From positions 64,082 to 128,081 of the forward strand of contig URAM01000003.1 in assembly GCA_900545815.1 (NCBI GenBank): DNA of 64,000 nt, read 5' to 3'. This document shows, in pieces, positions 7,849 to 26,454 of the stretch. A program made the translations under genes and the position numbers. This DNA is from an uncultured Eubacteriales bacterium. GTDB lineage: Bacteria > Bacillota > Clostridia > Oscillospirales > Oscillospiraceae. Position 1 is the stretch's first letter; each line of letters begins with the position of its first letter. The notes under the pieces were generated by a model, which ran no database searches, was not told the origin of the DNA, and worked only from the letters and a program-made list of their open reading frames with translations.

Positions 7849-9450
7849 TTACTCGTGTTCTTTCTCCTCTTCCTCCCCATCGGCGGCTTTGCCGGCGTTT
7901 TCATAGGCCATCAGGTTCATGATCTTCTCCGACAGCATGACCCAGAAGCAATCCCTGCTGTCCTCTCCCGTAAAGCCGGTCAAAGACTCGATGCGATTGA
8001 TGCGGTTTTTCAGGGTGTTGTAGTGGAGATACATGGTCTTGGCAGTGTTGGGGATGGAGCAGTGGTTTTTAGTGTAGACAAAGAGGGTGTTGAGCAGATC
8101 GGCGCTGGAGGGTGCGGCCTGGAGCTTCTTCACAGCCGGATGGAGCAGATCCCACAGGTTCACCTCTTTGCCCAGGGACAGGATCATATGGTACTCAAAG
8201 ATGTCCCGATAGCAGAGGATCTGCTGCTGCTCGTGCTCCTTGGAGATGGTGCGGAACTCGGTGCAGAACAAGGTCTGCTGGTAATAATTGCGCACCTGGT
8301 ACAGCTCGTGGAAATGAGTGGAGATGTTGGCGGTGCAGTTGAGCTTTTCCAGGACGGAGGAGAGCTGGCTGAGCCACTTCTCGTCTTGGGTGATGTTCTC
8401 CTCATTGGAGTCATAGAGCACCAAAAAACAGCCGTTAACCCAGATGACCAGATTGTTATGGAAGTAGGAACGGATACGCTGCAAGGTGAAGGAGATAATA
8501 TCGTTGGTGGTCTGGGAACCGATGAAGTTGATGCCGATGACGTAGAGGTATTTGTAGAATTTCAGGTTGTATAGCTCCTGACGGGAGAGGATCTCATATT
8601 TGTTGGTGAACTTCCCCTCCAGCAGCGAGTGCAGAAAGTCCTCCGTCAAAGAGACCACATCTGGGATGCGTCCCCGAGTGCTGCTGCGGACGAAGGGGAC
8701 ATAGTGGCTGAAGAGCTGGAACACCTGCAAGTCAAAATTGCTGACTGGATGGTTGGCCTCCAACAGTTTCAGGTAGCCCAGGACGATGTTGTTCTGATTG
8801 ACCCGCGTGGAATACTGCTTCACAGAGGTGACCTCGTTGGGCAGCTCCACCCGAATGTCTCCTAAAATCAAGTGATCCTCATCGGCAAAGGCGGAGCGGT
8901 TCATGATATAGCCGATGTACTTAGAGGAGAACATCTGGTTGTCCAGGGCGTAGCGCCAGGCATCCTCATTCCGGAGGACAGAGGTGCCGGCGTGGGCAAT
9001 GAGGTTAAAGGAGATGTCCACCAACATGAGGGGGTTGTTGAGGATGCTGTAGGCGTACTCCATGAGCTTGTGGATGTCCCCGCCGCCGTGGATGATGGAG
9101 ATGAGGGTGCGGGAGATATTGTCCAGCTTGGATTCTTCGGAGAGCAGTCCGGAGATCTGTTCGATGAGGGTAACGTATGCAGCTACAGAATGCACTACCA
9201 TCAGGTTCCCCTGCGCCGCCAGCGTATCCGGCGGCACCTCCTGTTCCGTGCAGAGCAGGAAATTTCCCTGGGGCGGGAGGGTCTGTTCCGTCAGATCTGG
9301 CGCTTTACTAATATAAAGGTAGTCTGGGCTGTAGGCGGTGTCCAGCTCACGGAGCTGTTTCAGACCGATGATCTTGGCTGTGGGACGCCGGCAGAGGATC
9401 TGTGCATCGGACGGCAGCAGATCCAGGATGCGTTCAACAGATATTTCCAT
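7849..9450 (-). CDS. PucR/CdaR-family transcriptional regulator, divergent from the ADH/ALDH operon
   Basis: Start at the ATG 9448-9450 (MEISVERILDLL...), preceded by GGAGGAA. C-terminal PucR HTH (...KTMYLHYNTLKNRINRIESLTGF...). Confidence 0.8.
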   Translation of the reverse strand: MEISVERILDLLPSDAQILCRRPTAKIIGLKQLRELDTAYSPDYLYISKAPDLTEQTLPPQGNFLLCTEQEVPPDTLAAQGNLMVVHSVAAYVTLIEQISGLLSEESKLDNISRTLISIIHGGGDIHKLMEYAYSILNNPLMLVDISFNLIAHAGTSVLRNEDAWRYALDNQMFSSKYIGYIMNRSAFADEDHLILGDIRVELPNEVTSVKQYSTRVNQNNIVLGYLKLLEANHPVSNFDLQVFQLFSHYVPFVRSSTRGRIPDVVSLTEDFLHSLLEGKFTNKYEILSRQELYNLKFYKYLYVIGINFIGSQTTNDIISFTLQRIRSYFHNNLVIWVNGCFLVLYDSNEENITQDEKWLSQLSSVLEKLNCTANISTHFHELYQVRNYYQQTLFCTEFRTISKEHEQQQILCYRDIFEYHMILSLGKEVNLWDLLHPAVKKLQAAPSSADLLNTLFVYTKNHCSIPNTAKTMYLHYNTLKNRINRIESLTGFTGEDSRDCFWVMLSEKIMNLMAYENAGKAADGEEEEKEHE

Positions 9451-9842
9451 AGGTTCCTCCTTTTCATGTATCGCTCGGAACAATTTGTCAGGTTTACAAA
9501 ATGTAACTTTGTGCAAACATTCCATTCTCTAACATATCGGTATTATCCCCAAATGACGTTGCTTTTAGAGTACCCTAATTCGGCGAAAAAAACAATCCTT
9601 AAAAAGGAAAACTCAAATTTCCACCACGGTTCCATGAAAAATTTCAACAAAATACTCCAATTCTGTTAGCATATTTTTTCAACTTCACGCTGAAAAAACC
9701 CGGTTTCATTCATCGGAACAAACAGAAGAATTGACGTTTCAGAAAGGCTTTTTGTGCATTATACTAAAGCCAGTGAGTGAATGAACGTGTCTGCGCAGGC
9801 AGAAGAACCTGTATATGAAAATTTTTGAGGAGGTTTTTCGGA

Positions 9843-11024
9843 ATGAATCGAGCCTATGAAAAGCTCTGCAACTACACACAGCAGTGCCCCGTCACCTTCG
9901 GCGTTGGCAGTATCGCCACCGTCAAGGACGCAATGGGTATGCTGGGCGCAAAGAAACTGTTCGTGGTCTACGACCAGGGCGTGAAGATGTCCGGTCTGGC
10001 CGAGAAGGTCACCAAGTCCCTGGATGAACAGGGCGTAGACTATATCACTTATGATGACATCACCGCTGAACCCGTGGAAGACGTGGTGGACAAGGCTTAC
10101 GAAGTGGCCAAGGAAGCCGGCTGTGACGGCGTTCTGGGTCTGGGCGGCGGCTCCCCCATGGATACTGCCAAAATCATCTCCGTCCTGCTGAAAAAGGGCG
10201 GCAAGACCAGCGATTATTTCCTGAGTAAGCTGGGCCCCATCTTCCACGATCATGTTCCCTCTCTGATGGTTCCCACCTCCAGCGGCACCGGCTCCGAAGT
10301 CACCTGCGTTGCGGTAGTCTCCGACATCAACCATGCCAAGGACGGCGTTCTGGCTGGCCCCTCCATGGCCATCGTTGACCCTGAGATGACCCTCACCTGC
10401 CCCCCGCTGAACACCGTCACCAGCGCACTGGACGCCTTCGCCCATGCTGCCGAAGCCTTCACCGCAGCAGATGTGGACCCCGTCAGCGACCAGTTGGCTC
10501 TGGAAGCCATCCGCTTGATCATGGCCAACCTGGACAAGGTCTATCACAACGGCGCTGACATCGAAGCTCGCACCCGTATGTCCATGGCCGCCAACATGGC
10601 TGGCATCGCCTTCAGCAACACCGGCGTCTCCTTCGGCCACGCTGCCGGTCACGAATTCGGCACCAAGTTCCACATCGGCCACGGCCTGGCTTGCTGCTAC
10701 AGCGTGCCCGTCACTCTGAAGTGGAACGCCATCAACAACACCGAACGCGCCAGAAAGATTGCCGAAGCCATGGGCATCGAAGGCTTTGACACCCTGGCTC
10801 CCGAAGAACTGGGCAAGGTCATGGCCGACATCATCGTGAAGATGATGAAGGACTACAAGGTTCCCACTATGGCAGAAAAGGGCGCCACCAGACAGGCTTG
10901 CATCGACCTGGCGGAGGACTCCATCGCCCACAACCAGATGCAGTATGCCGATGTGGTGCGTCCCATCCCCATCGAAGAATACCGCGAAATGCTGGCTGAG
11001 ATGTACGACCTGTCTGTTCAGTAA
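9843..11024 (+). CDS. Iron-containing (group III) alcohol dehydrogenase
   Basis: Start MNRAYEKL after GAGGAGG. Fe-ADH motifs GLGGGSPMDTAKI and the His-rich metal site (AHAAEAF...GHAAGHEFGTKFHIGHG). Confidence 0.85.
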   Translation: MNRAYEKLCNYTQQCPVTFGVGSIATVKDAMGMLGAKKLFVVYDQGVKMSGLAEKVTKSLDEQGVDYITYDDITAEPVEDVVDKAYEVAKEAGCDGVLGLGGGSPMDTAKIISVLLKKGGKTSDYFLSKLGPIFHDHVPSLMVPTSSGTGSEVTCVAVVSDINHAKDGVLAGPSMAIVDPEMTLTCPPLNTVTSALDAFAHAAEAFTAADVDPVSDQLALEAIRLIMANLDKVYHNGADIEARTRMSMAANMAGIAFSNTGVSFGHAAGHEFGTKFHIGHGLACCYSVPVTLKWNAINNTERARKIAEAMGIEGFDTLAPEELGKVMADIIVKMMKDYKVPTMAEKGATRQACIDLAEDSIAHNQMQYADVVRPIPIEEYREMLAEMYDLSVQ

Positions 11025-11120: not shown

Positions 11121-12467
11121 ATGTATAAAGAAATGCACGGTGTATTTGAAGTGATCGAAGACGCAATCGACGCAGCATACGAAGCACAGCGTATCCTGGA
11201 AGCCAACTACACCACTGAAGACCGTCAGAAGTTCATCGACGCTGTCAAGGCAGAAGCGCTGAAGGTGGTCAACGAAGAAACCATCAAGGAATTTGAAGAA
11301 ACCGGCTACGGCCGTCTGGATCAGAAGCTGGTCAAGAACTATGGCTCCATCGCAGAAAACCCCGGCGTAGAATCCCTGAAGCATGAAGTCCTGGCCTCCG
11401 GCAAGGGCGTCACCATCGACTTCGCCGCTCCCTACGGCACCGTTGGCGCTCTGACTCCTGTCACCAACGGTCTGGTCACCGTGGTCTGCAACACCCTGAG
11501 TATGCTGGCCGCTGGCAACACCATCGTTTTCAACGCCCATCCCGCTGGCAAGGAATCCGCTTGCAAGGCTTGCGACCTGGTCAACCGTGCCATCGTCGAA
11601 GCAGGCGGCCCCGACAACGTCTGCACCATGATCGCTGATCCTACTTATGAAACTCTGGATGTCATCATGGCTTCCGACAAGATCAAGATGCTCATCGGCA
11701 CCGGCGGCGAAGGCATGGTGGCCAAGCTCATGAGCTCCAACAAGAAGGTCATCGCAGCCGGCCCGGGCAACCCTCCTGCCGTCATTGATGAGACTGCCAA
11801 CGTCAAGCAGGCCGCCCAGGTTCTGTACGAAATGGTTCCCTTTGAAAACAATATGCTCTGCATCACCGAGAAGGAAGCCTTCGTTGTGGAGAGCGTCTAT
11901 GACGAATTCGTGGAAGCCATGAAGGAATGCGGCGCTCGCGTCCTGACCGAGGAAGAAGCACAGAAGGTCATTGACCTGTGCATCGCGCCCAACGCAGAAG
12001 GCAAGCTGATGCCCAACAAGAAGTTCGTCGGCAAGAACGCCAATGTCATCCTGAAGGCCGCCGGCCTGGAAGTGGACGAGAGCGTGGATCTGCAGCTGGC
12101 TGTCATCCTGACCGACAGTGTGGATCATCCCTATGTTATGTGCGAACAGCTCATGCCCATCTTCCCCATCTGCAAGGTCAAGGATTGGGACGCAGCTATG
12201 GCCGCAGCCATCAAGGCAGAAGCGGGCTGCCACCACTCCGCCTGCGTCTGGACTGCTTCTCTGGAACGGGCTACCGCTCTGGGCAAGGCACTGGGCTGCA
12301 CCTGCTTCGCCATGAACGGCCCCACCGTTGGCGGCACCGGCATGATGGGCACCGGCTACGGCTCCCCCACCATCGCTGTCTCCACCGGCGAAGGCTTCAC
12401 CACCCCCAACACCTTCACCAGATTCCGCCGCTTCGCTATGTGCCAGGGCGCTGCCTACATGGGCTAA
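11121..12467 (+). CDS. CoA-acylating aldehyde dehydrogenase of the PduP/EutE family
   Basis: Blocks typical of PduP/EutE: GALTPVTNG...VCNTLSMLAAGN, GTGGEGMV, IAAGPGNPPAVIDETANVKQAA, FENNMLCITEKE (catalytic Cys). AGGAGGAA SD. Confidence 0.85.
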   Translation: MYKEMHGVFEVIEDAIDAAYEAQRILEANYTTEDRQKFIDAVKAEALKVVNEETIKEFEETGYGRLDQKLVKNYGSIAENPGVESLKHEVLASGKGVTIDFAAPYGTVGALTPVTNGLVTVVCNTLSMLAAGNTIVFNAHPAGKESACKACDLVNRAIVEAGGPDNVCTMIADPTYETLDVIMASDKIKMLIGTGGEGMVAKLMSSNKKVIAAGPGNPPAVIDETANVKQAAQVLYEMVPFENNMLCITEKEAFVVESVYDEFVEAMKECGARVLTEEEAQKVIDLCIAPNAEGKLMPNKKFVGKNANVILKAAGLEVDESVDLQLAVILTDSVDHPYVMCEQLMPIFPICKVKDWDAAMAAAIKAEAGCHHSACVWTASLERATALGKALGCTCFAMNGPTVGGTGMMGTGYGSPTIAVSTGEGFTTPNTFTRFRRFAMCQGAAYMG

Positions 12468-12650: not shown

Positions 12651-13895
12651 ATGGAAATCAAAAAACTGAACTACGGTTGGGGTGTCAAACTGGCCGTCCT
12701 GCTCATCATCTGTGTGCAGTACACTGTCACCATCACCTCCCCCATCCTGGGCACCATCATGGAAGCGTTCCCGGAACACGCCAGCATGGTCAAGCTGCTG
12801 GAGACTATCCCCACCTTTGCAGCCGTGATCATCTCCATCCTGCTGGGACCGCTGATGAAGGTCTTTTATAAGAAGCAGCTGCTGCTGTTCGGCATCGCCC
12901 TGTCCTTCTTCCAGTTCATCCCCGCCATCGTCCCCGGCTTCTGGCCCCTGTTCATCTGCCGTACAGTCGCCGGCTTCGGCATCGGCTTCATGTACTCCTT
13001 CGCCGCTTCCTTCGCCGTCGATATGTTCGACGAAAAGGGCGCTGCGGATATGCTGGGTCTGAGAAGCACCCTGGGCGCTGTCATGGGCATCGTCTATCAG
13101 CAGCTGTCCGCCCGCTTCGCCGTGGCCTCCGGCAGCTATCAGCGCTCCTTCATGGTCGCTCTGATTCTGGTTCCCATCTTCCTGTACATCCTGTTCATGA
13201 TGCCCAAGAGCTGCCCAGTGGAGGACTACAATCGGGAACAGGCAAAGCTGCCCCATGAAGAAAAGGCCAAGGAAAAGATCTACTACCCCCTGACCATCGC
13301 TCTGCTGGCCGTCCAGTTCCTGACCCTGCTGTTCTCCTACGCATTCATGACCAACGTCTCCATCGTCACCAGCACCGCTGTGGAAGCTGGCGGCATGGGC
13401 ATGACCGCGGCCACCGCAGCAAACGTGCTGTCCGTCTTTACCGTGGCCATCGCCGTGGGCGGCCTGCTCTACGCCAGAGTGTGGTGCCGTATCTTCAAGA
13501 ACTTCACCACCGGCGCCGGCATCCTGTTCCTCTGCGTAGGCATGATCATCAACTTCACTGCCGCCAAAAGCTGTAGCCTGCCCCTGCTGATGGTGGGTAC
13601 TGTGCTGTATGGTTTCGGCTTCGAAATGAACAACTCTCACCTCTGCCAGCTCCTCCCCCTGACCTCCGTCCCCTCCGCTGCCGCTTCCCTGCTGGGCGTC
13701 ATGTACGCCTGCATCAACCTGGGCAGCTTCGCCGCCGGCTTTATCACTCCTGTCATCTCCAAGGCCATCTTCGGCGAAGGCATCCTGGCTGACTGGAACC
13801 TGTGCATCTTCGGTCTGGCCATCAGCACCGTCCTGATGCTCGTCTGCTGCGGCGCGGTCAACAAGCAGGTCAAAGCAAAATCCACTCAGCAGTAA
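12651..13895 (+). CDS. MFS transporter
   Basis: Start MEIKKLNYGW after GAGGAGG. 12 predicted TM helices with the typical MFS loop pattern. Confidence 0.75.
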   Translation: MEIKKLNYGWGVKLAVLLIICVQYTVTITSPILGTIMEAFPEHASMVKLLETIPTFAAVIISILLGPLMKVFYKKQLLLFGIALSFFQFIPAIVPGFWPLFICRTVAGFGIGFMYSFAASFAVDMFDEKGAADMLGLRSTLGAVMGIVYQQLSARFAVASGSYQRSFMVALILVPIFLYILFMMPKSCPVEDYNREQAKLPHEEKAKEKIYYPLTIALLAVQFLTLLFSYAFMTNVSIVTSTAVEAGGMGMTAATAANVLSVFTVAIAVGGLLYARVWCRIFKNFTTGAGILFLCVGMIINFTAAKSCSLPLLMVGTVLYGFGFEMNNSHLCQLLPLTSVPSAAASLLGVMYACINLGSFAAGFITPVISKAIFGEGILADWNLCIFGLAISTVLMLVCCGAVNKQVKAKSTQQ

Positions 13896-14083: not shown

Positions 14084-15382
14084 ATGAAAGAACAAGTACG
14101 CTCCTCTCAATTCCAGACGACTCGGAGCAATTTCGGCGCCTGGGGCTGGTTCACCATCCTCTTCGCATTCTTCTCCTTCATGTTCGCCGGCAACCTGATC
14201 GTAGACGGCATGAACATCACCGTCTCCGCCTTCGCCCAGCTGCGTGGCTGGCAGAGCGGGGTACTGCTGAGTTACTCCACCGTGGCAGGGCTGATCTCCA
14301 TCGTTGGCTGCGTTGTCCTCAGCAACAGTGTGTGCAGATACGGGGTCAAGATCGTTTACTGCATCAGTCTGGCCATTGTGGCTCTGTGCTGTATGGTCTG
14401 GGGTGCAGTGACCCAGCTGTGGCAGTACGTCCTCATCCTCATCCTGGTCAATATCTTCGGCAACGGCTTCGGTTTCGTGGGCGGCACCGCCATTCTCTCC
14501 AACTGGTTTCCTCGGAAAAAGGGTCTGGCCATGGGCTGGGCCACCATCGGCTTCCAAGCCTCTCCCGTCCTCATGCTCCCCACCTTCTCCTGGGTCATGC
14601 ATCGGTTCAACCTGCGCATCGCCTATCAGACGGTGGGTGCGTGCCTGCTGGTCATGCTACTGGTGTGCATCTTCTTGGTCAAGAGTGATCCGGAAGAGCA
14701 TGGCTGTGCGCCGGACAACGACTGGACCCACACCTTGGAGGAATTCAAGGCGCTGCATGAAAAGGCAGTGGCATACGAAAAGAGCCACCACCTGACCACC
14801 GCCCAGCTGCTCAAGACCAAGCAGATGTGGCAGATCGGGGTGGTCAACGGACTGCTACAGATGGCCATCACCGTCCTCATCGTCCAGTTCATCCCCAATA
14901 TGATCGCCTGCGGCTTCTCCGCCTCTACCTCCACCGCCATCTATTCTGTCGCTTCTATCCTGGGCGGTGTGGGCAGCTACCTGTGGGGATTGCTGGATCA
15001 GAAGGTGGGTGTGAAAAAGGCCACCGTTTGGATGTGCCTCATGCACGCCATCGCCGGCGCCGCCTTCGCCGTGGCTGCGGGACATCTGATCGAGGGGCCG
15101 GCGGTGCCCCTGTTCGGCGCCTTTATCGTTGGCTCCATCCTAGGCGTCTCCTCCAACTACGTTGGCTCCTTCACCGCCACCGTCTTTGGCCGCTACGGCT
15201 ACGCCCGTGCCTTCGGGCTGGTCTACATGGTGGTCTGCGCCCTGCGCTCTGCCGGTTATGCCCTCATCGGTGTGATCCAGACCGCCACCGGCAGTTACAC
15301 ACTCTCTTACTGGATCGCAGGCATCCTGAGTCTGCTGGCGCTGGCGCTGACCTTCCGCATTGATGACCGCTGCATCGGCTGA
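14084..15382 (+). CDS. MFS transporter (oxalate/formate-antiporter-like OFA-type features)
   Basis: Start MKEQVRSSQF after GAGAAGGAA. The upstream part of the long ORF overlaps the previous gene and is non-hydrophobic. Motif ...LSNWFPRKKGLAMGW... and 12 TM segments. Confidence 0.7.
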   Translation: MKEQVRSSQFQTTRSNFGAWGWFTILFAFFSFMFAGNLIVDGMNITVSAFAQLRGWQSGVLLSYSTVAGLISIVGCVVLSNSVCRYGVKIVYCISLAIVALCCMVWGAVTQLWQYVLILILVNIFGNGFGFVGGTAILSNWFPRKKGLAMGWATIGFQASPVLMLPTFSWVMHRFNLRIAYQTVGACLLVMLLVCIFLVKSDPEEHGCAPDNDWTHTLEEFKALHEKAVAYEKSHHLTTAQLLKTKQMWQIGVVNGLLQMAITVLIVQFIPNMIACGFSASTSTAIYSVASILGGVGSYLWGLLDQKVGVKKATVWMCLMHAIAGAAFAVAAGHLIEGPAVPLFGAFIVGSILGVSSNYVGSFTATVFGRYGYARAFGLVYMVVCALRSAGYALIGVIQTATGSYTLSYWIAGILSLLALALTFRIDDRCIG

Positions 15383-15404: not shown

Positions 15405-16244
15405 ATGGGGGATTGGAACCATGTGAACGGCTACCTCATCCGGCCGGAGCTGCAATACGCCGTGGAAGCAGCGCTGACCCTGAACAAGCCTCTCCTCCTC
15501 CGAGGCGAACCGGGCACGGGAAAGACCGGTCTGGCGCAGGCTGCTGCTCAAGCGCTCCAACGGCCGCTGCTGGTGTGGAACCTGAAATCGGACGCCAAGG
15601 CCAACCAAGGTCTATACCAATATGACGGGGTACGGCGGCTGTACGACAGTCAACTGCTGCGTGCGGCCGTCCCTGGCCGTCCCCGTCCCAAGGATCTGAC
15701 CGCCTATCTGCACCTGGGGCAGCTGGGACAGGCGTTTGTGTCCCACGAACCGGTGGTGCTGCTCATCGACGGCATCGACAAGGCGGATTTGGACTTCCCC
15801 GGCGACTTACTGTGGGAGTTGGAACGGGGACAATTCCAGATTGCCGAGACGGGAGCGGTCATCCAGGCTCGGCATCCCCCCTTGGTGCTCCTGACCTCCA
15901 ACGGAGAAAAGGAACTGCCCGTCGCCTTTCTCCGGCGCTGTCTGTTCTATGTCATCCCCTTTCCGGAGAAAGACGAAATGCGTGCCATCCTCTCCGTCCA
16001 CACCGGACTGGATGCGCTGCCGCCGGAACGGTTCGACCGAGCGTTGGAGGTATTCTACTGGATCCGCTCCCTGACCACACTGCAAAAGAAGCCCGGTACC
16101 TCCGAGCTGCTGGATTGGCTCCACGCCCTGGCTCTGACTGGGGCAGAGCCGGATGGGCTGCCTTATCTGGGGACGCTGCTGAAGCTGGAGGGGGACTGGG
16201 CAAAGGTACAGCAATACTGGAAGGGGCGACAGAATGTTCACTGA
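15405..16244 (+). CDS. MoxR-class AAA+ ATPase (CoxD/CbbQ/NorQ-like, ~280 aa)
   Basis: Start MGDWNHV after AAAGGAGAA. Walker A GEPGTGKT, Walker B VLLIDGIDKAD, sensor/Arg finger region. Confidence 0.8.
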   Translation: MGDWNHVNGYLIRPELQYAVEAALTLNKPLLLRGEPGTGKTGLAQAAAQALQRPLLVWNLKSDAKANQGLYQYDGVRRLYDSQLLRAAVPGRPRPKDLTAYLHLGQLGQAFVSHEPVVLLIDGIDKADLDFPGDLLWELERGQFQIAETGAVIQARHPPLVLLTSNGEKELPVAFLRRCLFYVIPFPEKDEMRAILSVHTGLDALPPERFDRALEVFYWIRSLTTLQKKPGTSELLDWLHALALTGAEPDGLPYLGTLLKLEGDWAKVQQYWKGRQNVH

Positions 16245-17442
16245 ATTCTTCTATTTGCTGCGGCAGGCGTATGGCCTGAACCTCTCCCTGCCTGAATGGC
16301 AGACCCTGCTCCGAGGGCTGGAGGCGGGTCTGCACCGGAACAGCCTGCTGGGCTTTTACGAGCTGTGCCGCCTGACCTTGGCCAAGAGCGAGAGCGACCT
16401 GGACAAGCTGGATCGGGGCTTTCTGGACTACTTCGGAGACATCGACCTGTTGGAATCGGTGCCGGAGGCGTTCATGGAGTGGCTGGCGCATCCGGAAGTG
16501 CAGGACAACGGCGTTTACAACTTCAAATTGGCGGAAGCAAACGATGCCTACTCCAACAACGAAGTCTCCCAGATGTTCCGAGAACGGCTGCGCACCCAGA
16601 AGGAGGAGCACAACCGAGGCAATTTCTATGTGGGCACCAGCGGCGTCTCCCCCTTCGGACGCAATGGGTACAGTCCCAAAGGCGTGCGGGTGGGGGGAGA
16701 AGGCCGGTTCCGCCGTGCCTTCTCCGTGGCTCAGCGACGGGAATTCCGAGATTTCCGAGAGGATCAGGTGCTGGACTTGCGGCAGATGCAGGTCGCCTTC
16801 CGGCGCCTGCGGCAGTACTCTGGTCGAGAGGATGTGCCGGAAACGGAATTCGCCCTGGACAAGACCATCCACGCCACCTGCCAGAACGGCGGCTGTCTGC
16901 GGGTGGTCTACGAAAAGCCCCGAAAAAACACCATCAAGCTGGCTCTGCTCATGGACAGCGGCGGCTCCATGTACCACTACGGCCGTCTCTGCTCCACTCT
17001 GTTCCATGCGGCCAATCAGGCCAACCACTGGAAGGATTTCAAACTTTTCTACTTCCACAACTGTGTCTATGACCAGCTCTACACCGACCCTCGCTGTCAG
17101 GATCAAAGCGCCATCGCCACCGAACAGGTCTTGCGTCAGCTGACATCAGACTACCGGCTCATGTTCGTAGGTGACGCCCAGATGAACCCAGATGAACTGT
17201 TACGCACCTCCTACTTCTCATTCAGCCGTTACGGCGTCAACAAGACGCCAGGGATTCAGTGGCTGAAGCGGTTCAAGGATCGCTATCCCCATCTGGTCTG
17301 GGTCAATCCGGAAGGGCGTCCCTCCGGCGGCAAGTTCTGGACGACCAGCTATGACGCCATCTCCGACCTGTTCGGCGGGATGTATCAGCTGACCCTGGAG
17401 GGGCTCAACGAAGCATTCAAAACACTGCTGGCCAAGGCATAG
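16234..17442 (+). CDS. VWA-domain protein of the CoxE family (partner of MoxR ATPase)
   Basis: ATG overlaps the stop region of the ATPase gene by 11 nt (translational coupling). CoxE-like N-terminus. C-terminal VWA/MIDAS region (ALLMDSGGSMY). Confidence 0.75.
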   Translation: MFTEFFYLLRQAYGLNLSLPEWQTLLRGLEAGLHRNSLLGFYELCRLTLAKSESDLDKLDRGFLDYFGDIDLLESVPEAFMEWLAHPEVQDNGVYNFKLAEANDAYSNNEVSQMFRERLRTQKEEHNRGNFYVGTSGVSPFGRNGYSPKGVRVGGEGRFRRAFSVAQRREFRDFREDQVLDLRQMQVAFRRLRQYSGREDVPETEFALDKTIHATCQNGGCLRVVYEKPRKNTIKLALLMDSGGSMYHYGRLCSTLFHAANQANHWKDFKLFYFHNCVYDQLYTDPRCQDQSAIATEQVLRQLTSDYRLMFVGDAQMNPDELLRTSYFSFSRYGVNKTPGIQWLKRFKDRYPHLVWVNPEGRPSGGKFWTTSYDAISDLFGGMYQLTLEGLNEAFKTLLAKA

Positions 17443-17445
17443 TGG

Positions 17446-17485
17446 AAACAGGCGTTCGATTGTTTATCGAACGCCTGTTTTGTGT
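17446..17485 (+). terminator. Rho-independent terminator after the VWA gene
   Basis: Stem AAACAGGCGTTCGAT / ATCGAACGCCTGTTT with loop TGTTT, then TTTGTGTATTTT. Confidence 0.8.
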
Positions 17486-17820
17486 ATTTTAGTCATTTTC
17501 TACGATGTCACTGGTGAAAAATGCAGCATTTCACAGGAGCGATGTGGGGGAAGGTTGCCAGATGGAATCGCAAGGAGTGTGAATATTTTTGCGGAAAACT
17601 TGGATGATTTTCAGTTTATTTTCGATATTTAAGTATTTTGTTCCGATGACACTCCCCCCTTCCAATGCTATCATGAAAGCAGATCAAGGCCCGCTCAGGG
17701 GTTACATCCTTCCACCCCATGGTCATTCACTCACTTGTGCCCCCTGGGCGGCCCCTATGTCAAGGAAACTTGTCCCTCTATAAATGAGATAAAATCCAAA
17801 CCAATACAAAGGAGAACAAT

Positions 17821-19035
17821 ATGGACGCACCTCTGAAAGGAATTAAAGTGCTGGAACTGGGCACTCATGTAGCGGTTCCCTCTGCCTGCCGGCTGATGGC
17901 AGAGTATGGCGCGGACGTGATCAAGATTGAGACTGCCGGTGGCGACCCCTGGCGTTACTCTGGGTTGAACGTCAACCTGACCATTGATGATTTCTCCTGC
18001 CCCGTCTTTACCATCCAGAACAACGGCAAGCGCCTGATCAGCCTGGATCTGAAAACCGAAGGCGGCAGAGCAGTGTTTATGAAGCTGCTGGAGAACACCG
18101 ATGTGTTCTGCACCAGCGTGCGCATGAAGGGTCTGGCCAAGATGGGGCTGGACTACGACACCCTGAAAAAAAAGTTCCCCAAGCTCATCTACTTCCACTT
18201 CACCGGCTACGGTCACCGCGGCCCCGACGCCGAAGCCCCCGGCTTCGACATCGCCTCCTTCTGGTCTCGGGTCGGCGCCCGTGTGGGTTGGGTGGAGGAA
18301 GGTACCTTCCCCGTCCGTGCCTCCGGCGGCTATGGCGACATGGTCACCGGTCTGCTCATCTTCGCTGGTATGGTCACCGCCCTGCGGGGTCGTGACGTCA
18401 CCGGCAAGGGCACCCTGGTCACCAACTCTCTCTTTGGCACCAGTATGTGGGTCAACGCACAGTCCATCATGTGCGCACAGCCCCCTTACAACCACCACTT
18501 CCCCGAGGACGTAGACCGTCCCGGCAGCCCCATGGTCTATGACTATGTGTGCAAGGACGGCGAATGGCTGGCGTTGGTGGGCATCGGCTATGAGAAGAAC
18601 TTCTCCCGCTACTGCAAAGCCCTGGGCATGGAAGAAGAAATCGACGACCCCCGCTGTCAGAATGAAAAAACCCTGGCGGACAGCGACTACATCTATGACC
18701 TGACCATGAAGGTGCGTGCCAAGATGAAGGAAAAGACCTCTTACGAATGGGAGGACATCTTCCGCAAGGCCGACCTGGTCTACTCCCGCCTGAACCACTT
18801 TGAGGACGTGCCCAAGGACGAACAAGCCTGGGCCAACGACTACCTCCAGGAAGTCACCTGGGGCAATGGCGTCACCAACGCCGTCGTTCGTCCTCCCCTC
18901 CACTTCAAGAGCTACGAACAGCGTGAGACTGTCTCCCTGGGCGGCATCGGCCAGCACACCGATGAAGTCCTGAAGGAATACGGCTTCACCCAGGAAATCA
19001 TTGACACCATGCGTACCAACAAAGAGATCATCTGA
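17821..19035 (+). CDS. Family III CoA-transferase (CaiB/BaiF/Frc family)
   Basis: Family-III N-terminal motif LKGIKVLELGTHVAVPSACRLMAEYGADVIKIE. AAAGGAGAA SD. Confidence 0.85.
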   Translation: MDAPLKGIKVLELGTHVAVPSACRLMAEYGADVIKIETAGGDPWRYSGLNVNLTIDDFSCPVFTIQNNGKRLISLDLKTEGGRAVFMKLLENTDVFCTSVRMKGLAKMGLDYDTLKKKFPKLIYFHFTGYGHRGPDAEAPGFDIASFWSRVGARVGWVEEGTFPVRASGGYGDMVTGLLIFAGMVTALRGRDVTGKGTLVTNSLFGTSMWVNAQSIMCAQPPYNHHFPEDVDRPGSPMVYDYVCKDGEWLALVGIGYEKNFSRYCKALGMEEEIDDPRCQNEKTLADSDYIYDLTMKVRAKMKEKTSYEWEDIFRKADLVYSRLNHFEDVPKDEQAWANDYLQEVTWGNGVTNAVVRPPLHFKSYEQRETVSLGGIGQHTDEVLKEYGFTQEIIDTMRTNKEII

Positions 19036-20849: not shown

Positions 20850-21731
20850 TCACAGTGTCCCTCCGTTGAGTACAAACTGCCGGAATTTCTGCACCGCCGG
20901 CGGCTGATAGGCTCGGTCATCACTGACCAGGTAGAAGCTGCGCTCCCACAACGGATGGGCGATCTGGATGATCTTCACATCCAACCGCAGCAGCATATCC
21001 ATATAGGGTACCACGGCGATACCAAATCCGGCAGCAACCAAACCGGCCACCACCTGATCTTCCTCCGTCTCGTAGGCGATGACGGGTTTGCCGTCAATTT
21101 TAGAGAACAATTCCTCCACCACGCCCCGCATTCCGGAGCCTTCTGAGAAGTAGACCTGGGGATAAGGCAGGGTTTCCGTCAGATCCACCGAGTGGTTCTT
21201 TGCCAAAGGATGGTTTTTGGGCACGATGAGCACCAGATCCTGCTGCTCTACTGCAATGGCAGTTAAGCCCATTTCCACTGGCGGTTTGGATGAAAAAACC
21301 AAATCAACCTTTTTCTCTGCCAGTTCATCCAAAAGATGGCTGGTCACACCGGTGTGAAAGGCGAATCGAATGTCCTTTCCCGGGTTCTCTGCCAGGAATC
21401 GAGCTGCCAATTTGGGCACATAATCTACCCCCAACGTCCGCAGCAATCCCAGCCGGATCAGCCCCTCCCCACGGCTGACCCGCTGGAGGGATTCCACCCC
21501 CTCATCCAAAATGGACAGGGTTTCCTGGGCACAGGCTAGGAACTGTTCTCCATACTGGGTCAGGGAGATACTCCGCCCGTTCTTCTCAAACAGCGGCACC
21601 CCCAGTTCCCCCTCCAGCTGGGAGATGGCGTGGCTGAGGCTGGGCTGAGTGATGCATAGCCGCTCGGCAGTGCGGGTGTAATGCTGGACGTGAGCCAGCT
21701 CTACGAAGTAACGCAGGTGTGATAAATTCAC
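20850..21731 (-). CDS. LysR-family transcriptional regulator
   Basis: N-terminal HTH MNLSHLRYFVELAHVQHYTRTAERLCITQPSLSHAISQLE. Divergent from the hydroaromatic operon. Confidence 0.85.
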   Translation of the reverse strand: MNLSHLRYFVELAHVQHYTRTAERLCITQPSLSHAISQLEGELGVPLFEKNGRSISLTQYGEQFLACAQETLSILDEGVESLQRVSRGEGLIRLGLLRTLGVDYVPKLAARFLAENPGKDIRFAFHTGVTSHLLDELAEKKVDLVFSSKPPVEMGLTAIAVEQQDLVLIVPKNHPLAKNHSVDLTETLPYPQVYFSEGSGMRGVVEELFSKIDGKPVIAYETEEDQVVAGLVAAGFGIAVVPYMDMLLRLDVKIIQIAHPLWERSFYLVSDDRAYQPPAVQKFRQFVLNGGTL

Positions 21732-21772
21732 GCAAAATACGCCCCCTTTCTTTGGTATGATTATACTATAAC

Positions 21773-21791
21773 TGATAGAAAAAAACTATCA
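21773..21791. promoter_or_regulatory. Candidate LysR-type binding site (T-N11-A palindrome)
   Basis: TGATAG-AAAAAAA-CTATCA, a perfect inverted repeat in the divergent intergenic region. Confidence 0.45.
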
Positions 21792-21950
21792 TTTTATCAA
21801 ATTTTATTGATTTGTTATTTTCCTCACAATGGGGTACAGTAGGGTCAGCCGAGGGCGGCAGCCGCCAGGCAAGCAGCACGGACGCCTGTACCGCCGCCCC
21901 AACCAATACGAAAAAATGCCGCCGCTGGACGGCAAGAGGAGGAAACGCAT

Positions 21951-22817
21951 ATGCAGCTGTCAGGAACCACCACCCTGCTGGGACTGATTGGATCGCCGGT
22001 CGCACACTCCAAGTCCCCTGCCATGTATAACTACTGTTTTCGGAAGTTCCATATGGACTGCGCCTATCTGGCCTTTGATGTGGCCGCCGATCAGGTGGAG
22101 CAGTCCGTAAAAGCCATCCGCACCCTGCATATGCGGGGCGCCAACGTGACGATGCCCTTTAAGACCACGGTCGTCCCTTACTTAGATCGCCTGACCCCGG
22201 CGGCAGAGACCATTCAGGCCGTGAACACCATCGTCAATGAGGACGGCGTCTTGGTGGGATACAACACCGACGGCTGCGGCTACACCCAGAACCTCCGCCG
22301 GAACGGCATCGAAGTGGCCGGCAAGAAGATCACCTTGATCGGCTGTGGCGGCGTTGGTTCCTCCATCGCCGTACAGGTGGCGCTGGAAGGTGCGGCGGAG
22401 CTGGCCATCTTCAATCGGAAGGATAAGTTCTGGCCCAGCATTGAAGAACGGATGGAGGCCATCCACAAGGTCGCCCCCAACTGTGTCCTCTCCCTCCACG
22501 ACCTGGCCGACCAGGACGCCCTGCATGAGGCAGTGGATCACTGCGACATCCTCTCCAACGCCAACATGGTGGGGATGCCCCCCATGGAGGACATGAGCAA
22601 CATCAAAGACCCCAGCTGGTTCCGGCCTGATCTGATCGTCACCGATGTGGTCTACTCCCCCACCGAAACGAAAATGCTCCGAGAAGCCAAAGCCGCTGGC
22701 TGCAAGACCTGCGGCGGGCTGGGGATGCTGCTGTGCCAGGGTGCGGAAGCGTTCCGGCTGTACAGCAAGGATCTGGAGATGCCCATTGATGAGATTCAAG
22801 CACTGCTTTACGATTAA
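21951..22817 (+). CDS. Shikimate/quinate 5-dehydrogenase family (AroE-like) paralogue 1
   Basis: LIGSPVAHSKSPAMYN...NVTMPFK...NTDG...GCGGVGSSIA motifs. Confidence 0.8.
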   Translation: MQLSGTTTLLGLIGSPVAHSKSPAMYNYCFRKFHMDCAYLAFDVAADQVEQSVKAIRTLHMRGANVTMPFKTTVVPYLDRLTPAAETIQAVNTIVNEDGVLVGYNTDGCGYTQNLRRNGIEVAGKKITLIGCGGVGSSIAVQVALEGAAELAIFNRKDKFWPSIEERMEAIHKVAPNCVLSLHDLADQDALHEAVDHCDILSNANMVGMPPMEDMSNIKDPSWFRPDLIVTDVVYSPTETKMLREAKAAGCKTCGGLGMLLCQGAEAFRLYSKDLEMPIDEIQALLYD

Positions 22818-22850
22818 CCACCAACGAAAGAGAGAAAGGATGAACAAGAC

Positions 22851-24077
22851 ATGACAAAGACAGATTCCAGAAGATACTATCCCACTGCCTTAGCCCTGTA
22901 CATCACCTACTTTGTCCTGGGCATCGCAGCAACCATCATGGGGCAGTACAAGCAGGACTTCGCCGCCCTGTGGGGCGCCAGCAAGCTGGCAGACGGCAGC
23001 TTTGACGTATCCAGCGTCGTGGCCGTCATCGCCGCCATCGGCCTGGGCCGTCTGGTGGCCTTCCCCATCGCAGGTCCTCTGTCCGACCGTCTCGGCCGCC
23101 GCCTGTCCGCTCTGATCGGCTGCGTCCTCTACGCCATCTTCCTGCTGGCCATCACTTTTGCACCGAATATGTATATCGGTTACGTCCTGGCCGTCATCAG
23201 CGGTATGGCAAACTCCTTCCTGGACACTAGCATCACCCCCTCCTGCATGGAGATCTTCAAGGAAAAGGGCACCATCGCCAACATCTTCACCAAGCTGGCC
23301 ATCTCCATCGCACAGTTCCTGCTCCCCTTTGCCATCGGCTTTGTGGCCGCACGGAACCTGCCCTTCCACACCATCTTCATCGCCACTGCGATCATCATCA
23401 TCGTAGACGGCATCTTCCTCTGCTTCCTGCCCTTCCCGCCTTTTGAACGAGTGGTCAAGAGCGCCGACAAGCCCAAGGAAAAGATGCACTTCACCGCCCC
23501 CGCTATCATCCTGATCTGCCTGGGCTTCACCACCTCCACCACCTTCATGCTGTGGATGAACTGCAACCAGGAGCTGGGCAAGCTGTACGGCTTACAGGAT
23601 CCTGCTATGATTCAGTCCTTCTACTCCGTGGGCATCGTCTGCGCCCTGTTCGTCAGCGCTGCACTGCTCAGCCGCAAGGTAGAACCGGCTAAGATCCTCA
23701 TCGTCTATCCCTGCATCGCCTTTATCACCCTGGGCGTCATCTACTTCGTACAGACCCCGTTCATCTGCCTGGCCGGCGGCTTCCTCCTGGGCTTCTTCGC
23801 AGCAGGCGGCGTGCTCCAGCTGGTCGCCGCAGTCGCCAACGAGATGTTCCCCAAGAACCGCGGCGTCATCACCTCCATCGTCATGATCGCCTCCAGCGTG
23901 GCCAACTACCTGGTCATCAGCGTGGCCGGCGTCCTGACCCGTGTGGGCGGCACCAACGGCCCCCGTCTGGTTCTGCTGTTCAATATGGCAGTCACCCTGG
24001 TGGGCATCCTGCTGGCTCTGTACCTGAACGTCTGCCAGAAGCGGGAGCGGGCAGCTGCTGAAAGAGCGGAGGCATAA
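22851..24077 (+). CDS. MFS transporter
   Basis: 12 TM helices with the MFS loop motif (GPLSDRLGRR). Confidence 0.75.
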   Translation: MTKTDSRRYYPTALALYITYFVLGIAATIMGQYKQDFAALWGASKLADGSFDVSSVVAVIAAIGLGRLVAFPIAGPLSDRLGRRLSALIGCVLYAIFLLAITFAPNMYIGYVLAVISGMANSFLDTSITPSCMEIFKEKGTIANIFTKLAISIAQFLLPFAIGFVAARNLPFHTIFIATAIIIIVDGIFLCFLPFPPFERVVKSADKPKEKMHFTAPAIILICLGFTTSTTFMLWMNCNQELGKLYGLQDPAMIQSFYSVGIVCALFVSAALLSRKVEPAKILIVYPCIAFITLGVIYFVQTPFICLAGGFLLGFFAAGGVLQLVAAVANEMFPKNRGVITSIVMIASSVANYLVISVAGVLTRVGGTNGPRLVLLFNMAVTLVGILLALYLNVCQKRERAAAERAEA

Positions 24078-24080
24078 CGG

Positions 24081-24596
24081 ATGAAAACAACGAACAACCT
24101 CTTTCTCATTGGCTTCATGGGTGCGGGCAAATCCTCTGTCTCCGCCGCCCTGGGACAGAAGCTCGGCCGTGCGGTCGTTGAAATGGATCAGTGCATCTCG
24201 GAAAACGAGGGCATGACCATCCCCGAAATTTTCGCCCAGAAGGGCGAGCCCTACTTCCGTACCTGTGAAACAGCCCTGCTCCAGGGCTGTGCCCAGGGGG
24301 AACCCCGTATCATCTCCTGCGGCGGCGGCGTGCCCATGCGGGAGGAAAACGTAGCGGCTATGAGAGCCTGCGGCACCATCGTCCTGCTCACCGCCCGTCC
24401 CGAAGTCATCCTGGAGCGAGTCAAGGACAGCGATGACCGCCCTCTGCTCCAGAACCGCAAAAGCGTAGAAGGCATCTCCGAACTGATGGAGCAGCGCCGA
24501 CCCAAATACGAGGCTGCGGCCGATGTGACCGTGGACACCTCGGACTTGAACATCGAAGAAGTCTGCGAAGCAGTATTGCAGCAGGTCAACCATTGA
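24081..24596 (+). CDS. aroK: Shikimate kinase-like P-loop kinase
   Basis: LIGFMGAGKSSV Walker A, 171 aa, shikimate-kinase length and motif layout. Confidence 0.75.
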   Translation: MKTTNNLFLIGFMGAGKSSVSAALGQKLGRAVVEMDQCISENEGMTIPEIFAQKGEPYFRTCETALLQGCAQGEPRIISCGGGVPMREENVAAMRACGTIVLLTARPEVILERVKDSDDRPLLQNRKSVEGISELMEQRRPKYEAAADVTVDTSDLNIEEVCEAVLQQVNH

Positions 24597-24620
24597 TAGA
24601 AACACAAGGAGGAAACTACT

Positions 24621-25466
24621 ATGTCTCAGAAATATCCCATCACCGTCAGCTCCTGGACCCTGGGCGATCAGTGCACCTTTGAAGAACGTGTTGCAGCAGC
24701 AAAGGCCGCCGGTTTTGAAGGCATCGGTCTCCGTGCGGAAACCTATGTGGACGCCCTGAACGAAGGTCTGTTCGATGCGGACATCCTGGCCATCCTGGAA
24801 AAGTACGATATGAAGGTCACCGAAGTGGAATACATCGTCCAGTGGGCAGATGACCACCGCTCCTACGAGCAGAAGTACAAGGAACAGATGTGCTTCCATA
24901 TGTGCCATCTGTTCGGCGTCAACCACATCAACTGCGGCCTGATGGAGAACTACTCTGTCGAACACACCGCTCAGAAGCTGCGTGAACTGTGCCACCGTGC
25001 AGGCAAGTACACCATCGGCGTGGAACCCATGCCCTACAGCGGTCTGCCCGATGTGAAGAAGGCTTGGGCTGTGGTCAAGGAATCCGGCTGCGACAACGCA
25101 AAGCTCATCCTGGACTCCTGGCACTGGATCCGTGCCAACCAGAGCTATGACCCCTCCGTTCTGGCTGACGTCCCCGCTGATAAGGTAGTCGCCGTCCAGA
25201 TCAACGATGTTCAGGCACACCCCTATGCCGCTCCCGTCCTCCGGGACGAGTCCATGCATGACCGCATGATGCCCGGCACCGGCCACGGCGACACCGCCGG
25301 CTTTGTGAAGATGATCCGCGAAAAGGGCATCGAACCCGCTGTCATGGGCGTGGAAGTCATCAGCGATGAGATCCTGAGCGCCGGCGTGGCAGAAGCCGCC
25401 AAGGCAAACTTCAACGCAACCCGCGCTGTTCTGGAACAGGCTTGGCCTGAAGTAGTGGAACAGTAA
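24621..25466 (+). CDS. Xylose-isomerase-like TIM-barrel (sugar-phosphate isomerase/epimerase) protein; 3-dehydroshikimate-dehydratase-like in this context
   Basis: ~280 aa with (beta/alpha)8 pattern and conserved His/Glu/Asp positions (HLFGVNHINCG...GVEPMP...DSWHW). AGGAGG SD. Confidence 0.55.
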   Translation: MSQKYPITVSSWTLGDQCTFEERVAAAKAAGFEGIGLRAETYVDALNEGLFDADILAILEKYDMKVTEVEYIVQWADDHRSYEQKYKEQMCFHMCHLFGVNHINCGLMENYSVEHTAQKLRELCHRAGKYTIGVEPMPYSGLPDVKKAWAVVKESGCDNAKLILDSWHWIRANQSYDPSVLADVPADKVVAVQINDVQAHPYAAPVLRDESMHDRMMPGTGHGDTAGFVKMIREKGIEPAVMGVEVISDEILSAGVAEAAKANFNATRAVLEQAWPEVVEQ

Positions 25467-25522
25467 GCGCCACACACCGAACCCTTAAATTTGATCTACG
25501 ACTTTTTTGGAGGTATTACAAT

Positions 25523-26398
25523 ATGGAAAGCAGAATCTCTGGACACACGAAGCTCTTTTGCCTGATCGGCTCCCCCGTTGGCCACTCCGGCTCCCCCGCT
25601 ATGTACAACTACACCTTCGAACGCCTGGGCATTGACGCCGCTTACCTGGCCTTTGACATTCCCCTGGAGCAGGTGGAAGCAGGCGTAGAAGCCCTCAAGA
25701 CCCTGGGCGTAGGCGGCTTCAACGTGACCATGCCGGACAAGACCGCTGTCTCCCACCTGGTGGACGAGCTGTCCCCCGCAGCCAAACTCATCGGCGCCTG
25801 CAACACCGTCACCGTGGACGAGAACGGCAAGCTGACCGGCCACAACACCGATGGTATGGGCTTCGTCCGCAACCTGCATGAGCATGGCGTGGAAGTCAAG
25901 GGCAAGAAACTGGTGGTCATGGGCGCAGGCGGCGCAGCAACCGCCATCTGTATGCAGACCGCTCTGGACGGCGCCGCTGAGATCGCCATCTTCAACCGTA
26001 CCGGCTATGACTTCTACTCCAACGGCGAACTGACCGTCCAGAAGCTGGCAGAAGCGGTGCCCAACTGCAAAGTCACCATCCAGCCCCTCCAGGACAAGGA
26101 AGCCCTGGCAGAAGCGGTCAACCATTGTGACATCCTGGTCAACGCCACCAAGGTGGGCATGAAGCCCCTGGAAGACCAGAGCCTCATCGACCCCTCCCTG
26201 TTCCGTCCTGACCTGGTGGTTGCCGACACCGTCTACAACCCCAGAGAGACCCGCATGATCCAGGAAGCCAAGGCAGCCGGCTGCAAGATCGCCGTAGGCG
26301 GCATCGGTATGCTGCTGTGGCAGGGTGTGGCAGCGTTCAAGCTGTACACCGGCAAGGATATGCCTGCGCAGGAAGTCCTGGAGAAGTTCTTCTCCTGA
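25523..26398 (+). CDS. Shikimate/quinate 5-dehydrogenase family (AroE-like) paralogue 2
   Basis: LIGSPVGHSGSPAMYN...NVTMPDK...NTDGMG...GAGGAATAI motifs. Confidence 0.8.
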   Translation: MESRISGHTKLFCLIGSPVGHSGSPAMYNYTFERLGIDAAYLAFDIPLEQVEAGVEALKTLGVGGFNVTMPDKTAVSHLVDELSPAAKLIGACNTVTVDENGKLTGHNTDGMGFVRNLHEHGVEVKGKKLVVMGAGGAATAICMQTALDGAAEIAIFNRTGYDFYSNGELTVQKLAEAVPNCKVTIQPLQDKEALAEAVNHCDILVNATKVGMKPLEDQSLIDPSLFRPDLVVADTVYNPRETRMIQEAKAAGCKIAVGGIGMLLWQGVAAFKLYTGKDMPAQEVLEKFFS

Positions 26399-26454
26399 GT
26401 TCCCGCCTGTAACGTCTGAAATTACCGAAGATACCAAAGAGGAGGAGTTAAGAT

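Follow-up and report, generated by a model that had tools for sequence, protein, structure and literature searches.

A CoxD/CoxE-like AAA+/VWA gene pair with an altered Walker B motif at the end of a predicted catabolic operon in Oscillospiraceae

A stretch of 64,000 nucleotides (hereafter, the window) from contig URAM01000003.1 of an uncultured Eubacteriales bacterium, placed in the Oscillospiraceae, was analysed around two overlapping genes at positions 15405-17442. The first encodes an AAA+ protein of the MoxR class resembling CoxD, and the second encodes a protein with a von Willebrand factor A (VWA) domain resembling CoxE. The initial annotation of this DNA had described an 11-nt overlapping pair of this kind within a metabolic operon, and had proposed that it serves one of the enzymes encoded beside it. 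The pair lies among genes for a group III iron-containing alcohol dehydrogenase (Fe-ADH), an aldehyde dehydrogenase (ALDH), two transporters of the major facilitator superfamily (MFS1 and MFS2) and a family III CoA-transferase (CoAT3), as follows.

7849..9525, minus strand: PucR/CdaR-type regulator (HTH_30), divergent from the operon; Pfam HTH_30 recorded on orthologues
9738..9765, plus strand: weak sigma-70-like site, candidate operon promoter 5' of Fe-ADH; 9/12 consensus matches, a consensus match only
9843..11024, plus strand: group III Fe-ADH, operon gene 1; Pfam Fe-ADH and ADH_Fe_C
11121..12467, plus strand: CoA-acylating ALDH of the PduP/EutE type; NCBIfam PRK15398, 466 bits (cutoff 403)
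12651..13895, plus strand: MFS1; Pfam MFS_1
14084..15382, plus strand: MFS2, monocarboxylate / oxalate-formate-like; Pfam MFS_1, with weak NCBIfam SfMCT and OFA matches
15405..16244, plus strand: MoxR-class CoxD-like AAA+ protein, 279 aa; Pfam AAA_5
16234..17442, plus strand: CoxE-like VWA adaptor, 402 aa; Pfam VWA_CoxE
17445..17481, plus strand: intrinsic terminator hairpin; 16-bp stem with T-rich tail, -27.8 kcal/mol, z = -6.7
17646..17674, plus strand: promoter-like site for the CoA-transferase gene; ATGACA, 17-nt spacer, TATCAT with preceding TG
17821..19035, plus strand: CoAT3; Pfam CoA_transf_3, 264 bits

The predicted operon runs from the Fe-ADH gene through the VWA gene, in the six-gene order Fe-ADH, CoA-acylating ALDH, MFS, MFS, AAA, VWA, and is closed by the terminator after VWA. 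This hairpin starts three bases 3' of the VWA stop codon and is kept in the related loci L001 and L004 (other loci and contigs are given by such L numbers), and in L004 a C:G pair has become T:A by a compensatory change. The AAA gene starts with the ATG at 15405, just 3' of a ribosome-binding site (GGAAAGGAGAA), and stops with the TGA at 16244; the VWA open reading frame (ORF) starts with the ATG at 16234, and the 11-nt overlap, ATGTTCACTGA, is confirmed along with the coordinates first given for both genes. No terminator or promoter was found between the MFS2 and AAA genes, whose spacing across the related loci ranges from an 8-nt overlap (between called genes, in L098) to a 39-nt gap. The hexamers of the CoAT3 promoter-like site are identical in L004 and L095, and the block is kept in L001 too. 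Because of the terminator and this conserved site, the CoAT3 gene is most likely a separate transcription unit and probably does not share the transcript of the pair, which corrects the initial annotation. The enzymes of the operon would plausibly run a pathway from alcohol through aldehyde to acyl-CoA. An Rfam search of the whole window returned no riboswitch or leader that would name its substrate, and the Fe-ADH, CoA-transferase and MFS genes reached no NCBIfam equivalog cutoff. The regulator adjoins the operon in every variant seen; its start may be internal (relatives are 532-539 aa long), and its NCBIfam CdaR/AdeR matches are weak only. The ~150 nt at 17675-17820 that lead from the promoter-like site to the CoAT3 start codon show high conservation among the window, L001 and L004; this leader holds a C-rich/G-rich complementary pair (CAGGGG...CCCCTG), matches no Rfam family, and may be regulatory. 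A MATE exporter gene comes after that for CoAT3.

The ATPase matches Pfam AAA_5 at 48.2 bits (cutoff 22), and its AlphaFold (AF2) model, with a mean predicted local distance difference test (pLDDT) score of 82, has a single AAA+ module with a NorQ/CbbQ-like fold. In Foldseek searches with this model, NorQ was matched at E 2.7e-13 and a template modelling (TM) score of 0.71-0.78, and CbbQ2 at TM 0.70; among solved structures, the top sequence matches of the family ATPase profile were the AAA modules of midasin (E 6e-26). Walker A (GEPGTGKT) occupies residues 34-41, at 15504-15527. Sensor 1 (TSN, 164-166) and the Arg finger (R177) are invariant in the family alignment and match the CoxD motifs ILTSNG and RRRC. 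Walker B reads VLLIDG (15756-15773), with Gly123 (GGC, 15771-15773) where the catalytic glutamate is expected. The protein is accordingly as expected of the MoxR class in AAA_5 score, fold, Walker A, sensor 1, Arg finger and VWA partner, and departs from it in the Walker B glutamate. Its partner matches Pfam VWA_CoxE at 32.2 bits (cutoff 26.4) and is predicted to consist of an N-terminal helical domain (~1-85), a low-confidence linker (87-228) and a VWA domain (~230-400). A motif like that of MIDAS, the metal-ion-dependent adhesion site, D241-S-G-G-S245, lies at 16954-16968; the MIDAS residues D241, S245, T296 and D314 are conserved, and the first Ser position is Gly family-wide (D-x-G-G-S-M). 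Among solved-structure sequences, neither the VWA protein nor its profile had a match. These Pfam matches, and the evolutionary conservation of the embedding described below, agree with the initial description of a MoxR-class/CoxE-like couple within a metabolic operon.

Authentic CoxD and CoxE, taken from plasmid pHCG3 of Afipia (Oligotropha) carboxidovorans, share the two-gene architecture and are of matching size (295 and 399 aa; the window proteins have 279 and 402 aa). CoxD is a full-length homologue of the ATPase (33% identity, E 6e-31, hhalign probability 99.9%), and CoxE is collinear with the VWA profile (hhalign probability 84%, E 8e-6, 291 columns) in an alignment that spans the N-terminal helical domain, the VWA domain and a WLNP motif. 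However, CoxD/CoxE mature the CuSMoO2 cluster of aerobic CO dehydrogenase, whereas neither coxMSL nor XdhC lies near the window pair. The MIDAS of CoxE is a canonical DASGSM, against D-[S/V]-G-G-S-M in the window family, and CoxD keeps the DE of Walker B. A tblastn search of a plasmid collection with the VWA protein returned 18 records, none of them from Afipia/Oligotropha though pHCG3 was included, and a literature search on CoxD-like/CoxE-like proteins gave nothing useful. The label 'MoxR-class, CoxD/CoxE-like' is justified at the level of architecture, for what the alignments indicate is a distant sister family. The closest curated model for the ATPase is NCBIfam MadB (NF047784), which family members match at 105-135 bits and the window ATPase at 105.8 bits, far under the equivalog cutoff of 475; for MadC (NF047783, cutoff 600), the VWA protein of one relative matches weakly and that of the window has zero matches. 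As these scores are far below the equivalog cutoffs, the window family is classed as a sister group to MadB/MadC and not a member. Literature on MadB/MadC as an AAA/VWA pair brought up unrelated MadB proteins only, and no meaning of Mad was found there.

NorQ/NorD and CbbQ/CbbO are the closest structural matches of the ATPase model (TM 0.70-0.78). They differ from the window pair in several respects, as sequence identity to NorQ/CbbQ is ~20%, their clients are encoded next door and their ATPases are catalytically competent. The NorD/CbbO-type partners are proteins of 600-770 aa. NorD, of 70 kDa, has a layout like that of the VWA protein studied here, in which a disordered linker joins an N-terminal domain to the VWA domain (PMC9976466). 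In NorQD, the pore of the ring receives a finger of the VWA domain, and the adaptor linker, twisted through ATP hydrolysis, opens the client; in Midasin/Rea1, a dynein-related AAA_5 ring with a MIDAS/VWA domain, the latter docks on the AAA ring likewise (PMC13036017). Midasin differs in being a giant six-module eukaryotic protein of ribosome assembly. The D/T subunits of chelatases (BchD, CobT), in which the AAA+ module is degenerate, are a known case of an AAA+ module that is catalytically inactive and works with a VWA domain. In BchD/CobT, however, both domains are fused in one polypeptide that acts with a separate active ATPase (BchI/CobS), and no such BchI/CobS-like partner was seen at the window locus.

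We then analysed the distribution of the family. A scan with the VWA alignment, taking one genome per species, gave at least 582 species with confirmed relatives, which belong to Bacillota, Actinomycetota, Chloroflexota, Myxococcota, Beta- and Gammaproteobacteria, Planctomycetota and, in one case, an Asgard archaeon. Among 83 non-redundant loci outside the window clade, AAA lies directly 5' of VWA in 61 (median gap 7 nt), one small gene stands between them in 8, more than 1.1 kb separates them in 3, and VWA occurs with no AAA in the locus in 11. Between AAA and VWA, loci of Comamonadaceae and relatives (L066, L074, L075, L080, L081, L085 and L086; ~9300-9990 in locus coordinates) carry a conserved gene that encodes ~200 aa and resembles by eye a GNAT-type acetyltransferase; its neighbours look like cytochrome c and TamA/TamB-like genes. 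Two Oscillospiraceae loci with VWA proteins 90% identical differ in this arrangement: AAA lies upstream in L014 (9103-9996), and L018 (8800-9920) has ~1.1 kb without an AAA ORF following an RNase H gene.

For the gene neighbourhood, all ORFs within 10 kb were clustered without prior assumptions across 84 species-level loci. After the pair genes and their antisense shadows, the commonest neighbour family was present in 9 of them, and since no neighbour family exceeds this count, it is normal here for the pair to have no client gene beside it; the initial annotation was built on the premise that pairs of this kind adjoin their client, and this premise fails for the family. Annotated loci sit among housekeeping genes, and in Acinetobacter baumannii the pair is followed by trpB, prmB and aroC. 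The family is normally free-standing, with no client encoded in cis. Targeted searches of the same loci found Fe-ADH in 2, ALDH in 3, CoAT3 in 4, the xanthine dehydrogenase (XDH) family in 3 and enoyl-CoA hydratase in 8, and co-occurrence with Fe-ADH or a family III transferase, which the initial annotation had named as a check, is accordingly rare. Nor is the pair consistently adjacent to another client such as an XDH-family enzyme, a possibility also raised at the outset: XDH/CO dehydrogenase, considered as a hidden client, is never directly adjacent to the pair. Within the 64-kb window, tblastn with CoxL/M/S, XdhC, two XDH-family proteins and RbcL gave zero matches, which agrees with the initial statement that no Mo, Cu or Rubisco client is present, and no second AAA/VWA copy was found there either. 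Genes of acyl-CoA metabolism (enoyl-CoA hydratase in 8-9 of the 84 loci, acyl-CoA dehydrogenase in 3, thiolase in 5) are no more frequent near the family than by chance, as roughly estimated from the usual abundance of these gene families. With PADLOC defence models, the ATPase gave P-loop-local matches only and the VWA protein none, and the neighbours are core metabolic or housekeeping genes.

The window pair belongs to a branch of this family with a different setting. Database relatives of the window VWA protein at 81, 70, 68, 66, 63 and 61% identity bridge to the general family (<=54%), and the same gene cluster recurs at VWA identities of 96, 81, 67, 66, 63 and 61%. Synteny in L004 is identical to that of the window; in L095, AAA and VWA overlap by 11 nt and are followed by CoAT3 and, after it, by unrelated genes; L098 has MFS2 (68% identical), AAA and VWA in order; and L099/L100 has AAA, VWA and a DUF1622 gene. 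In L092/L093 the order is CoAT3, the PucR regulator (opposite strand), Fe-ADH, ALDH, MFS, MFS, AAA, VWA, DUF1622, and CoAT3 is thus on the other side; identities between this locus and the window are 91% for ALDH, 83% for CoAT3, 69% for Fe-ADH, 63% for VWA, 55% for MFS2, 54% for AAA, 45% for PucR and 38% for MFS1. On the basal branch, the small DUF1622 gene, 10-40 nt after VWA (L092:11216-11560, L099:1695-2063), takes the place of the terminator and CoA-transferase gene of the window. In the VWA tree, neighbour-joining bootstrap support is 100% for a clade made up of the seven embedded loci, and the sister group of this clade is formed by free-standing Oscillospiraceae/Lachnospiraceae pairs. 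The comparison shows that the module became the last two cistrons of the predicted operon in a monophyletic group of gut-type Clostridia. The position of the pair is retained in at least six lineages despite reshuffled flanking genes, which is the usual signature of a functional operon member.

Within this branch, the ATPase of the window clade is degenerate. Walker B reads VVLLIDEIDKAD in all homologues outside the window clade (69/69 genomic and 110/110 database sequences), whereas all nine window-clade ATPases have VVLLIDGIDKA, with Asp-Gly; the loss of the glutamate is confined to this clade. Gly123 is maintained, since its codon varies synonymously (GGC in the window and L001, GGA in L004). 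Other near-invariant positions (T63, N133, M142, R158 and H182) are replaced as well, and six residues are inserted after residue 84. Among columns conserved at >=90%, 16 of 112 are changed in the ATPase versus 5 of 72 in the VWA protein, and among near-invariant columns 6 of 65 versus 0 of 18. Other Bacillota ATPase orthologues are 60-85% identical to each other and 55-59% to proteobacterial ones, whereas the window-clade ATPase shows merely 45-53% identity to all other orthologues and its VWA partner is not unusually divergent. The degeneration looks stepwise: the L092 ATPase is canonical, that of L098 keeps DE and FLRRC and has already lost N133 and R158, and that of L095 (P0011) keeps DE but has N133G and R158P in common with the window. 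The ratio of nonsynonymous to synonymous substitution rates (dN/dS) in three genomes is 0.12-0.15 for the ATPase and 0.06 for VWA, and the ATPase dN is the highest of 14 syntenic genes. These ratios indicate purifying selection on both genes, with a looser hold on the ATPase, which since the embedding has diverged faster than every neighbour except the MATE gene. Elsewhere in the family, the alignment of one ATPase (P0012, 352 aa, from a Joint Genome Institute metagenome) shows an internal duplication of ~70 residues, from before sensor 1 to sensor 1. In NorQ, the E109Q change at the equivalent Walker B glutamate leaves ~2% of the ATPase activity and makes the hexamer more stable, and the nitric oxide reductase cNOR is no longer matured (PMC9976466). 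With Walker A, sensor 1 and Arg finger intact, the window-clade ring most likely still binds ATP, and it probably hydrolyses ATP very slowly or not at all.

As to the operon gene that goes with the pair, orthologous operons that lack it are informative. L102 and L104/L105 have the order PucR (opposite strand), Fe-ADH, ALDH, phosphotransacylase, acetate/butyrate-type kinase, MFS1, MFS2, with identities to the window of 62% for MFS2, 49-51% for MFS1, 47-49% for Fe-ADH and 64-68% for ALDH; AAA, VWA and CoAT3 are absent within 10 kb. Since Fe-ADH, ALDH and both MFS carriers occur there without the pair, they do not generally need it, and we inferred that they are less likely clients than CoAT3. 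The pair occurs in the operon variant in which CoAT3 replaces phosphotransacylase and kinase. In a separate VWA clade (L039 and L050, 100% bootstrap), CoAT3 lies immediately upstream, preceding a full pair in L039 and an orphan VWA gene in L050, where it belongs to an operon of acyl-CoA dehydrogenase and electron transfer flavoprotein (ETF) genes. That region (L050:4656-12084, uncultured Oscillospiraceae) reads acyl-CoA dehydrogenase, ETF-beta, ETF-alpha, CoAT3, a 281-aa protein, the orphan VWA and MerR. The same genome has a canonical AAA-VWA pair elsewhere (L022), and the orphan adaptor may be used in trans. CoAT3 is a weak candidate, and from these gene contents the best current one, for client or partner of the pair. 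Of ALDH and the transferase, both suggested as clients at the outset, the latter survives, still as a weak candidate, and ALDH, present in the sister operons without the pair, is less likely.

Taking these observations together, our leading explanation, held tentatively and at somewhat less than an even chance, is that the pair is a lineage-specific, operon-embedded derivative of a widespread free-standing CoxD/CoxE-like module, with a ring that may be nucleotide-locked and with CoAT3 as its likeliest client. On the model of NorQ/NorD and CbbQ/CbbO, the VWA protein would bind to the AAA+ hexamer, and the client would be held by the adaptor's VWA face and its N-terminal domain. In canonical relatives, ATP hydrolysis would then twist or stretch the linker and so remodel the client; in the window clade, the module would either serve the VWA adaptor as a nucleotide-locked scaffold or holdase, or rely on a canonical paralogue encoded at another place in the genome. 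The most likely candidate for the client would be the CoA-transferase encoded nearby, and as family III CoA-transferases form interlocked dimers, an assembly factor for CoAT3 is conceivable. The narrower and more specific proposal, that the hydrolysis-dead MoxR ring and the intact CoxE-like adaptor form an ATP-locked assembly factor or holdase dedicated to CoAT3, a non-metalloenzyme, is improbable as it stands; if true, it would add a new class of client and a hydrolysis-independent working mode to the MoxR/VWA systems.

Several points weigh against this explanation. A metagenome scan with the CoA-transferase, which returned 13 loci, gave a 9.9-kb contig (L111) with a CoAT3 85% identical to that of the window beside MFS1-MFS2 (MFS2 64% identical) and no pair, which implies that CoAT3 can do without the pair in cis. 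CoAT3 and the pair may have been gained in one evolutionary event, in which case their co-variation carries almost no statistical weight, and the low count of CoAT3 near the pair across the family tells in the same direction. The lineages that keep the operon position are related, and some phylogenetic inertia is possible. A different residue could stand in for the lost Walker B glutamate. Finally, AF2 modelled the VWA protein poorly (pLDDT 60), and this model had no Foldseek match at E <= 0.001, its weak matches (integrin, the MDN1 MIDAS domain, NorD) being at E > 0.01 only.

Of the other explanations, the one that survives best, although still rather unlikely in our judgement, is that the pair is a general, trans-acting housekeeping module that came to lie 3' of MFS2 by chance and has no functional tie to the operon. 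The lack of conserved neighbours in the family overall, its location among unrelated core genes and the existence of related operons without the pair would all fit such hitch-hiking, as would the position of the subclade where a species tree would put it, beside the Oscillospiraceae pairs. Hitch-hiking sits poorly, however, with the tight and signal-free junction to MFS2, which has been kept while both flanks were reshuffled; moreover, a housekeeping copy would be expected to keep a glutamate that all 179 other homologues possess, and would not be expected to be the fastest-evolving gene of the locus.

We give little credence to a role of the pair as metallochaperone, with insertion or repair of iron in the group III ADH, the client favoured in the initial annotation. 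Fe-ADH is the sole metalloenzyme of the operon and is present in all four pair-containing contigs that extend far enough upstream (L001-L003, L004/L005, L092/L093, L108), and NorQD provides a precedent of a MoxR/VWA pair as a metal-insertion factor (PMC13036017). Yet the orthologous operons have Fe-ADH, regulator, ALDH and MFS genes with no pair within 10 kb, Fe-ADH lies close to the pair in just 2 of the 84 family loci, and the family MIDAS is without its first serine. The Walker B glutamate required for ATP-driven remodelling is lost, and because the equivalent change in NorQ abolishes cNOR maturation (PMC9976466), ATP-driven metal insertion is hard to reconcile with Asp-Gly at this position.

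A further possibility is that the ATPase gene is a remnant decaying into a pseudogene and that the VWA protein alone is functional. The high dN of the ATPase, the loss of several invariant residues and the loci with VWA and no adjacent AAA, including L050 in its acyl-CoA operon, point in this direction; nevertheless, we regard it as doubtful, as dN/dS is far under 1, all lineages have an intact ATPase ORF, the window AAA and VWA sequences fall in a 90%-identity cluster of 812 member sequences, and Walker A, sensor 1, the Arg finger, the glycine codon (through a synonymous change) and the 11-nt overlap are all retained. Least credible of all is a role of the pair in assembly or gating of MFS2 or in regulation of the operon: MFS2 is the one invariant direct neighbour, always immediately 5' of the pair in those subclade members whose upstream gene can be seen, but its orthologues (62-64% identical) occur without the pair, and the searches made brought up no precedent for such a role.

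To our knowledge, few AAA+ systems are less well understood than MoxR/VWA pairs, which have only a small number of known clients (Rubisco, cNOR, CO dehydrogenase, methanol dehydrogenase and the RavA targets). What is new here is the family-wide lack of a cis-encoded client, the conserved operon-embedded branch, the arguments against an Fe-ADH client, and a natural Walker B-null ATPase on which selection still acts. The CoxD/CoxE-like family is very large (hundreds of species at least, including Acinetobacter baumannii, Paracoccus and Ralstonia), and naive guilt by association is inapplicable to it; the rare branch captured by a catabolic operon is a tractable entry point for finding the client of the family. 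The Walker B-null ATPase could show whether the AAA+ ring does more than hydrolyse ATP.

The remaining window is ordinary chromosome of a spore-forming member of Clostridia, and the source organism is common in metagenomes, with one ATPase allele on 249 contigs. On the minus strand, 28800-50000 holds the division and cell wall (dcw) cluster (mraZ, rsmH, a penicillin-binding protein, murF, mraY, ftsW, murG, murA, ftsQ, ftsZ) together with spoIIGA/sigE. A LysR-controlled cluster at 20850-28383 encodes two paralogous shikimate/quinate dehydrogenases, an MFS carrier, shikimate kinase, an AP_endonuc_2 protein (sugar-phosphate isomerase/dehydratase-like) and an old yellow enzyme (OYE)/Pyr_redox_2 protein resembling enoate reductases. 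Genes for an OYE-like reductase and an LRR_5 protein also flank the orthologous ADH/ALDH operons (L102, L104, L111).

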